64,000 bases of DNA from Chiloscyllium plagiosum (GCF_004010195.1 NC_057719.1:35392280-35456279); one strand, 5' to 3'. Counted from the stretch's first letter, positions 41,190 to 42,935 are shown. The notes: generated by a model not told the origin, from the sequence alone. Numbers and translations are program-made.

Positions 41190-42935
41190 CTGGTGGGAGA
41201 GCTTTAGTACAATGATTATGGTGGTATCTTGTGTCATCCTTTCACTTGGATGGCAGTAGGTGATGCCTTAGTCACTACGAAAGGTGCCCCTTTCGGCTCA
41301 TTCCAGCGTCTTCGAAAAAACCGCACATACACCCAATCCCCGGGTGAAATTGGTCCTTCCTTGGTTCCCTTTGTGTTTCCTGCAGGTGGATAGTCTCATG
41401 TATCATAGTTAGCTGCTGCATATATTGTTTAAGTTCTAAGCTTAACCACTCCAAGCTAGGCCCTTCGTATGGGCCTTTCCACTTGGGTGCTGGCATAGGT
41501 CTACCTGAGAGCATCTCATGCAGTGTTAGATTGGTCATGCGATTAGTCTGCATGCGATAACTCATTCGCACCAGCGGCAGCACATCAACCCAATCAAGGT
41601 CGGTGCTTGCGCAGATCTTGTTTAATCTGGCTTTCAATGTCCCATTAATCCTTTCCACCATACCTTGTGACTGGGGATGATACACGCACCCAAACCTCTG
41701 ATTCTCAAAGACTGCAGCACCAACTTAACTACTTCCTGAATGAAGGCAGACCCATTGTCTGAACTAATTTCTGACGGTATACTAAACCTTGGGATAACTT
41801 CATTCGTCAGAAATTTCACTACTGTCCCAGCTCCTGGTTTTAACCTTATTTCCACTGGGCTAGCTGATTTCACTCTCCCCACATGTGTATCATGCTGTGA
41901 CCACAAAGTGGCTAGTAATGCATCCAATCGCTCATTACCATATTGATCACCTTCCTCCACTGTCACTAGCATGCTCCACTTTGGTGTTATCTTGACTTCC
42001 CTCGGATTCCCTATTAAGTTGCAGCATGCTAGGATTTTAATATAGCTGCCATCCCCAGATTCCCAAACTCCTGTCGTGAGCATATGCCATCCCTGATTGT
42101 TTCTACACACCTGGCCATAGGTCCTAAGTCTTTAGATTGATATCCCTTATTTACCAATAAGGTTACATGTGGTGCGGCACCTGGTACTCTATACCACCCT
42201 TCCAGGACCGCATTTCTCTCTATTTGCAGGATCACTCCCTGCTCCCCTAATACTATTGTTTCACTTCTCAAATGTTGCGGAGTAGTGACTTCCTGCTGCC
42301 ACTGCCTCTCTAATACCTCATCCTGAGACTCATCAAATATCACTATACAGTGCAGCTCAGACATGGGTGGACTCGATGGGCCGAATGGCCTTACTTCCAC
42401 TCCTATGTCTTCTGGTCTTATGGTCTTGCTTTAGTCAACATCATCAACACTTCTGCTTCTCACATCCCCAAATGTTTTGAATATCACTTACTATATCCCC
42501 TATCCAATAAACATTAACATCTTTAACTTCTTGCATCACTAATTGTGTATTGGCCTTTTCTATGACCAAGCCCTGCTGTGTGCACTCCAATCTTACCTCT
42601 AACTGCAGTAAAGCATCCCTACCTAACAAGTTAATTTGCATCTCTTTAGACACTAATATTGGCAGAGCTATCTCCCTACCTTCCATTTCTAATCTTACTA
42701 GAGCTGTAAATCGAGTTAACCATGATTTCCCTGAGAACCCTACTGTTTTAACAAATTTACTTGACATGGGAAGGTGAGAGGCATACCGCAGCTGTACACA
42801 AGTGTATGTAGCTCCGATATCTATCATCACCGGTGTCTGCCGCCCTTCTATATTAACTTGTATTACTGGTTCTTGATCAGCCTCCCATGCTACTACAGGG
42901 TACAGCCCCTTCCCACCCAGGTTCTCAGGGCATCC
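41190..42935 (-). pseudogene. pol: ERV pro-pol remnant: protease, 2H phosphoesterase-like domain, RT N-terminal stub fused to the integrase core
   Basis: Protease MIDIGATYT..NLLGRDAL (42444-42830); LHCI..PHVTL domain (42029-42360); LWSQHDTHVG..SPVEIRLKPGA joined to TVVKFL..IPRFSIP..ISSDNGSAF..YHPQSQGMVERINGTLK. Confidence 0.92.
42362..42428 (+). mobile_element. Very short LINE/SINE 3' tail inserted into the ERV pol region
   Basis: GACTCGATGGGCCGAATGGCCTTACTTCCACTCCTATGTCTTCTGGTCTTATGG; same tail family as 63909-64000. Confidence 0.7.

Follow-up and report, generated by a model that had tools for sequence, protein, structure and literature searches.

What is encoded in the stretch that follows the protease of a decayed endogenous retrovirus (ERV) of Chiloscyllium plagiosum, and what use could a retrovirus have had for it? 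A preliminary description of the locus, made from a 64,000-nucleotide stretch of DNA (the window; all positions are counted from its first letter), had proposed a CNPase-like 2H phosphoesterase domain that an elasmobranch ERV lineage packaged into its virions, possibly for the destruction of 2-5A. Ray-finned-fish epsilon-like ERVs are reported to encode, in some cases, a CNPase or a macro domain (PMC4977317, citing Basta 2009), and 2H domains have been recorded in fish retroviruses and in WDSV (PMC9503650, citing Mazumder 2002). The domain in fish retroviruses is therefore already in print, and the present locus extends it to a likely cartilaginous-fish branch. We find that the domain is real, that it is of the CNPase-like 2H type carried by class I retroviruses of fish, and that it lies here in a dead copy from which the reverse transcriptase (RT) has been deleted.

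The domain is part of a decayed, dead LTR provirus on the minus strand, at positions 38190-47417 of the window. Its 5' LTR (46102..47417, minus strand) and 3' LTR (38190..39282, minus strand) match each other in three pieces at 95-97% identity in a self-blastn comparison and differ in 30 of 681 columns, a K2P distance of 4.6%. The 4-base target site AGAT is found at 47418-47421 on the 5' LTR side and again beyond the 3' LTR, which is itself preceded by a polypurine tract. Each LTR harbours an insertion. One of ~640 bases, acquired later, splits the 5' LTR at 46631-47272 and resembles positions 22412-22949 of the window at 84%; the other, a repeat inside the 3' LTR at ~38629-39054, is 67% similar to positions 185-550 and ends with a short tandem tail, which we take to be a typical LINE 3' end. 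Directly after the 5' LTR comes a primer-binding-site-like sequence (46079..46097, minus strand), recognized from its sequence and presumably of the tRNA-Ser type, and the leader between this site and gag (45260-45760) contains a direct duplication of ~55 bases along with GT/GA microsatellites.

The coding parts of the provirus, all on the minus strand, have decayed throughout. Stops and frameshifts riddle gag (43030..44900, bounds approximate, delimited by tblastn and translation), in which a match to residues 370-564 of the relative P0098 (44000-43395; tblastn, E 4.8e-8) and a degenerate zinc knuckle (~43090-43050) can still be recognized. The retroviral aspartic protease (42588..42878; Pfam PF00077, E 6.7e-10) has the catalytic triplet D-I-G, as opposed to D-T-G in the stingray homologue introduced below, and given this triplet the protease of the window copy is likely dead too. 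On the far side of the domain, a linker and the first RT codons, ~50 in all (41829..41979), stop at a large internal deletion: the alignment with P0055 (1437 aa) leaps from residue 322 to residue 1111 at ~41829, a loss of ~790 codons that took the RT and RNase H almost wholly, together with the N-terminus of the integrase. The integrase core and C-terminal remnant (41190..41828), frameshifted, was traced by tblastn with P0055, P0114, P0117 and P0119 and also gives weak matches to the Pfam families rve and rve_3. It is followed by a decayed env with a gamma-type TM (39495..41100, start approximate, from translation) that retains, at ~39990-39915, an immunosuppressive-domain-like stretch and CX6CC. 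The provirus thus has the class I (epsilon-like) layout LTR-gag-pro-(2H)-pol-env-LTR with a gamma-type Env. When a profile of the relatives (alignment A1), dominated by RT columns, was compared with the PDB, the best match was to MLV RT (E 4e-23), followed by Pr125Pol entries (E 6e-14), which we take to be those of foamy virus, and HIV (E 1e-6); these matches concern the RT of the relatives, that of the window being deleted. As far as a sequence profile can tell, MLV RT as the best solved-structure match fits class I.

Within this provirus, the two motifs on which the preliminary description rested, ELHCIVIFD (motif 1) and APHVTLLVNKGYQSKDLG (motif 2), share one minus-strand frame, with their His codons exactly where it had placed them (42352-42350 and 42169-42167) and 61 residues apart. 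That both are of the HxT type holds for motif 2, which reads H-V-T, and for the family at large, but not for motif 1, which reads H-C-I in the window copy and H-C-A in the stingray homologue P0001; a test for two H-x-T/S motifs accordingly failed in this copy. A pattern written post hoc from the motifs has one match per 127,996 translated window positions, a figure that describes the pair and is no test of chance. The domain starts with a first strand and helix (42429..42527, minus strand; tblastn with P0001 residues 124-143, and translation), which collapse into stops right before an insertion at 42362. Its core (42095..42361, minus strand), delimited by 59-60% identity to P0001, the family alignment and models of homologues, includes both motifs, a Phe at His1+5 and a Gly at His2+15, followed by a predicted alpha7-like helix. 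The C-terminal strands (41980..42089, minus strand; tblastn with P0001 residues 253-289) lie past a frameshift at ~42090. The domain therefore runs from ~42527 to ~41980; the extent first given, 42029..42520, overlaps it and falls short, since the domain continues past 42029 and across the frameshift. The frameshift and the stops before the insertion bear out the earlier view that this copy is broken.

The inserted sequence (42362..42428) is a piece of a high-copy repeat. Summed contig depth rises to ~1-4 million over it but is only a few thousand on either side; where contigs represent other copies, they omit 54-72 bases at this point, with loose ends clustered at 42367 and 42420-42427; and a 16-base word from it can be matched at 6 places in the window (0.15 expected). 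Depth, skipped bases and loose ends bear out an insertion at about the place originally proposed, which may be the tail of a shark LINE/SINE element of the HER1/HE1 kind. One RNA run mapped to the locus covers only the inserted repeat and is at most 2 reads deep elsewhere, so that it says nothing about expression. The provirus family is multi-copy in at least three organisms, as judged from contigs of 4 of the 24 runs listed.

To which family does the domain belong? Its closest named protein is XP_059830613 (P0001) of the stingray Hypanus sabinus, which is 59% identical over the core and has the order protease, domain, RT start. A phmmer search with the 166-residue domain of P0001 retrieved 109 relatives (E<=0.001) among 1.84 billion representatives, at ~20-40% identity to the stingray query. 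A family without HxT at both positions had been set beforehand as the outcome that would speak against a 2H domain; instead, of the 68 relatives that span both H-x-T/S motifs, 57 have retained the two intact, and the His-His spacing is 59-68 residues in 67 of these 68. Taken singly in the family alignment, motif 1 has its His in 71/80 relatives and T/S at +2 in 76/80 (Thr itself in 75/80), and motif 2 has its His in 91/97 and T/S at +2 in 92/97. The Thr of motif 1 in the family is no search artefact, because the query carries an Ala there. An aromatic residue occupies His1+5 in 70/80 relatives and a Gly His2+15 in 82/93; an Arg at His2-2, the equivalent of mouse R307, occurs in 1/97. With 109 homologues and this conservation of the motifs among them, a chance pair of motifs is ruled out. 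A pseudogene of cellular CNP was likewise rejected: the domain lies downstream of a retroviral protease, in a provirus with an LTR at either end, and its identity to CNPase is 9-16%.

Many of the 61 relatives scanned with Pfam contain a protease and/or an RT, and no Pfam family fell on the domain itself in any of them; full-length relatives show the protease, an unannotated gap and then the RT. A location between protease and RT, as first described, thus applies to the family; in the window copy only the ~50 codons from the start of RT are left. No Pfam model reaches threshold on the domain: the window domain gave no family at E<=1, the CNPase family PF05881 appeared in 1/36 members below threshold (E 0.084), and the fungal CPD family PF08302 gave weak matches in 2/36, with an ESM Atlas feature score of 0.83-0.84 that we treat as a lead only.

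Among the 30 clusters looked up, 10 bear species names, namely the stingray and nine ray-finned fish (Phyllopteryx, Hypomesus, Festucalex, Corythoichthys, Sarotherodon, Danio, Nerophis, Hemibagrus and Pleuronectes), and the representatives of the ray-finned clusters keep both motifs. Around motif 2, the window and stingray domains share 19 residues without a difference. In a quick tree built from 71 of the 109 relatives and the unbroken core of the window copy (the other 38 were dropped because their profile match fell short of spanning positions 45-120, and no CNPase, WDSV or outgroup sequence was included), the two form a pair (SH-aLRT 95) nested in a 28-row group (95) with teleost ERV domains. 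The nesting contradicts a separate elasmobranch capture, and the domain is not special to elasmobranchs; we infer that the elasmobranch branch took it from the same retroviral stock as the teleost ERVs. Word-index protein searches yielded no further member of this branch (1/109, 0/155 and 0/80 candidates), which is weak evidence of absence, and metagenome scans with the window and stingray pair found nothing. A metagenome scan with P0002 returned one related ERV-like fragment (L001:144-636), another internally deleted copy, whose domain breaks off behind motif 1 and continues as stretches resembling RT and integrase.

To examine the fold, we modelled two homologues, P0001, which has 59% identity to the core of the window copy (pLDDT 96.0), and P0002, a natural sequence with both motifs intact (pLDDT 88.5), and compared both models with 48,161 PDB representatives. 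Mouse CNPase (2xmi) came first for each, at Z 15.8 and rmsd 3.0 over 162 of 166 residues for P0001 and at Z 15.9 and rmsd 2.7 over 160 residues for P0002, and the next PDB entries followed at Z 9.4 and 9.6, respectively. Each of the 21 entries that scored above Z 5.5 is either of the 2H type or unannotated. Further matches include human CNPase (1woj, Z 16.7), goldfish RICH (2i3e, Z 14.0) and the fungal entry 6u05 (chain range 642-832; Z 13.1, 151 residues aligned), and at lower scores MHV ns2 (Z 8.1, 8.5), Acb1 (Z 8.0, 7.8), rotavirus VP3 (Z 7.5, 7.8), AKAP18 (Z 7.1-7.5) and penguinpox PDE (Z 6.1, 6.8). The PDB matches listed by Foldseek comprise CNPase and RICH entries alone (best E 1.4e-6), in agreement with the CNPase-like 2H fold first proposed. 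The suspected kinship with WDSV-type polyproteins was also upheld: when one model was compared with predicted viral structures (BFVD), the three top matches were Q2VF30 (TM 0.86), presumably a salmon retrovirus polyprotein, WEHV1 Q9WHI8 (TM 0.82, E 1e-10) and WDSV A4GTG3 (TM 0.80, E 2e-9), the latter two labelled 'Envelope polyprotein' in the database; identity to the polyprotein matches is 13-20%. The next BFVD neighbours, at E ~3e-4, are the uncharacterised Bodo saltans virus A0A2H4UVU5 and Terrestrivirus A0A3G4ZK77, which from their modelled structures may be further CNPase/CPD-type enzymes. At the sequence level the likeness to CNPase fades: besides the low identity given above, a domain-only profile matched CNPase sequences non-significantly (E 0.39-2.1), and phmmer with the window domain against PDB sequences gave one unrelated match (E 0.26). 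Descent may therefore be from vertebrate CNP or from another tRNA-healing CPDase.

Set beside known systems, the domain has its closest counterparts in fish epsilon-type retroviruses (WDSV, WEHV1 and teleost ERVs), with the same fold (TM 0.80-0.86) and the same motif pattern, and in the teleost ERV sequence relatives it occupies the same place between protease and RT. The window copy differs from these in its likely cartilaginous host, in a motif 1 without Thr, in its interruption and in the loss of RT. The best structural match is to vertebrate CNPase and fish RICH (2xmi, 1woj and 2i3e; PF05881), at Z 14-16.7 over nearly the whole model, and the aromatic residue at His1+5 and the Gly and helix after motif 2 add to the likeness; the offsets are those of mouse CNPase, in which F235 is H230+5 and G324 is H309+15. 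However, the CNPase catalytic domain has 205-220 residues and a His spacing of 79, as against ~166 and ~61 in the retroviral domain, which is preceded by a retroviral protease where CNPase has an N-terminal domain of its own, and which lacks an equivalent of R307. The fungal tRNA-ligase cyclic phosphodiesterase, which heals RNA cyclic-phosphate ends, is also alike (PF08302, 6u05); it works in a ligase-kinase-CPD chain, whereas no ligase or kinase domain was found in 13 relatives scanned. MHV ns2, MERS NS4b, the rotavirus VP3-CTD, AKAP7, Acb1 and avian poxvirus PDE belong to the same 2H superfamily and carry H-x-T/S twice, but these 2H PDEs reach Z 6-8.5 over 111-142 aligned residues, in comparison with ~16 and 160 for CNPase. 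By these models, the domain groups structurally with CNPase and not with ns2, VP3 or AKAP7. Viral 2',5'-phosphodiesterases are reported to descend from AKAP7-like genes (PMC10835031).

A feature described as unique to CNPase within the 2H enzymes is helix alpha7, which positions the water nucleophile, shuts the side of the site where 2-5A-cleaving enzymes bind their substrate and bars nucleophiles larger than water (PMC5283653). In each model a helix spans His2+11 to His2+21, and the mouse beta5-alpha7 loop comprises residues 319-321; judged by these offsets and by the coverage of the alignment, the helix after motif 2 may be equivalent to alpha7.

Domains made within Gag-Pro-Pol get packaged into virions. 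The earlier claim of virion packaging is supported by the location inside Gag-Pro-Pol; from this position and established retroviral biology, the domain would be packaged together with RT. In the explanation that we favour and regard as probable, the locus is a dead fish-type ERV, and the CNPase-fold domain at the start of Pol likely opens 2',3'-cyclic phosphates in intact relatives, the domain of the window copy being broken and likely inactive. The most likely activity would be that of a 2',3'-cyclic-phosphate 3'-phosphodiesterase, although likeness of fold does not by itself establish function. On 2',3'-cyclic phosphates produced by host metal-independent RNases, such an enzyme would hydrolyse the bond at the 3' position and yield 2'-phosphate/3'-OH ends, and it would likely act on cyclic-phosphate ends of tRNA or viral RNA or on free 2',3'-cNMPs; it would thereby tidy the ends of cut tRNA or viral RNA and strip cyclic-phosphate RNA marks sensed by innate immunity. 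Since cyclic-phosphate ends can stimulate RIG-I/MDA5, NLRP3 and TLR8 (PMC8406329), an immune role by a route other than 2-5A is possible.

The activity would reside in the relatives and probably not in the two elasmobranch sequences. Mouse CNPase T232A has a kcat/KM below 0.01, as against 1.70 for the wild type (PMC4643303), and because the motif-1 Thr is absent from the window and stingray domains, both are likely inactive, even if the breaks in the window copy are set aside. The active enzyme that the preliminary description envisaged in the elasmobranch lineage is putative, and going by these two sequences the branch may have lacked activity in its hosts all along.

The immune antagonism originally suggested, in which the domain would act as a 2',5'-phosphodiesterase on 2-5A and so keep RNase L from being activated, in the manner of MHV ns2 or rotavirus VP3, draws on membership of the same superfamily (ns2 Z 8.1-8.5, VP3 7.5-7.8, AKAP18 7.1-7.5) and on the OAS-RNase L pair, which works in a cartilaginous fish (PMC10400998). 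According to the same source, however, the common ancestor of the ray-finned fish lost OAS-RNase L; all named carriers besides the stingray are ray-finned fish, and the Thr is missing precisely in the branch whose hosts have RNase L. Retention of the domain with intact motifs in hosts without RNase L, together with a helix at the offset at which CNPase alpha7 blocks the 2-5A side, argues for CNPase chemistry over 2-5A cleavage; with the structural grouping also on the side of CNPase, we consider 2-5A antagonism very improbable. Degradation of cGAMP, or of some other cyclic-dinucleotide signal that reverse-transcribed DNA elicits, as by phage Acb1 or avian poxvirus PDE, strikes us as distinctly unlikely. 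2H folds have been adapted repeatedly for cleavage of such signals (PMC11410667), a Pol-borne enzyme would arrive along with the cGAS-triggering DNA, and Acb1 entries are among the weak BFVD rows, but Acb1 (Z 7.8-8.0) and penguinpox PDE (Z 6.1-6.8) score well below the ~16 of CNPase, and alpha7, as described for CNPase, would keep out nucleophiles larger than water and close off the other side of the active site (PMC5283653).

Whether the domain had a function at all may also be asked. Other class I retroviruses such as MLV are not known to carry a CNPase-like domain, and the window copy is dead, in keeping with a neutral passenger or with a mere spacer that separates protease from RT; yet the catalytic His and Thr/Ser persist in 57/68 relatives despite ~20-40% identity, which points to selection on the active site and makes a passenger or spacer highly unlikely. 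A narrower proposal is that the elasmobranch branch kept a non-catalytic fold for binding, as a nucleotide or RNA-end sponge or as a decoy for the CNP of the host. The motif-1 Thr is absent from both members of the branch, as compared with 4/80 relatives without T/S overall; the two pair in the quick tree (SH-aLRT 95) and share the 19 identical residues round motif 2, and host CNP is known to bind HIV Gag and to inhibit the assembly of lentiviral particles (PMC7471995, PMC5434554). We find this proposal fairly unlikely: it is drawn from no more than two sequences, whose residues at that position differ (Ile and Ala), and the loss in motif 1 is explicable by independent decay, as the window copy has decayed all over and its protease triplet departs in the same way. 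The 40 listed of 186 differences in contigs of other copies do not include the third position of motif 1 and so favour neither view. A more speculative and likewise rather unlikely proposition is that a CNPase-derived enzyme, borne on Pol and delivered with RT, destroys a nucleotide immune signal, either cGAMP or cyclic-phosphate RNA marks, with the elasmobranch form perhaps a dead decoy; if true, it would be the first retroviral second-messenger nuclease.

Beyond host range and a degenerate first motif, a dead, RT-deleted locus adds little in itself. The function of the domain is narrowed, with CNPase-type chemistry favoured and 2-5A disfavoured by structure and host range, and activity data on intact domains might bear on the purpose of vertebrate CNPase activity. 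A search of the mainly open-access literature found no functional test of the fish-retrovirus domain, no report of it in sharks or rays and nothing on why retroviruses would need CNPase activity. By term search, the domain goes unmentioned in Han 2015 (elephant-shark ERVs), PMC10835031 and PMC8672886, and recent surveys of viral phosphodiesterases make no mention of retroviruses (PMC10835031, PMC11410667, PMC8406329).

One relative combines the domain with a second enzyme-like module. In P0119 (2316 aa), the 2H domain follows the protease, and a Macro domain (residues 1348-1461; PF01661, E 5.7e-13) sits between RNase H and integrase, alongside unannotated inserts. It is the sole such case in the 13 relatives scanned, and from its domain content the 2H and Macro pair could process ADP-ribose cyclic phosphate.
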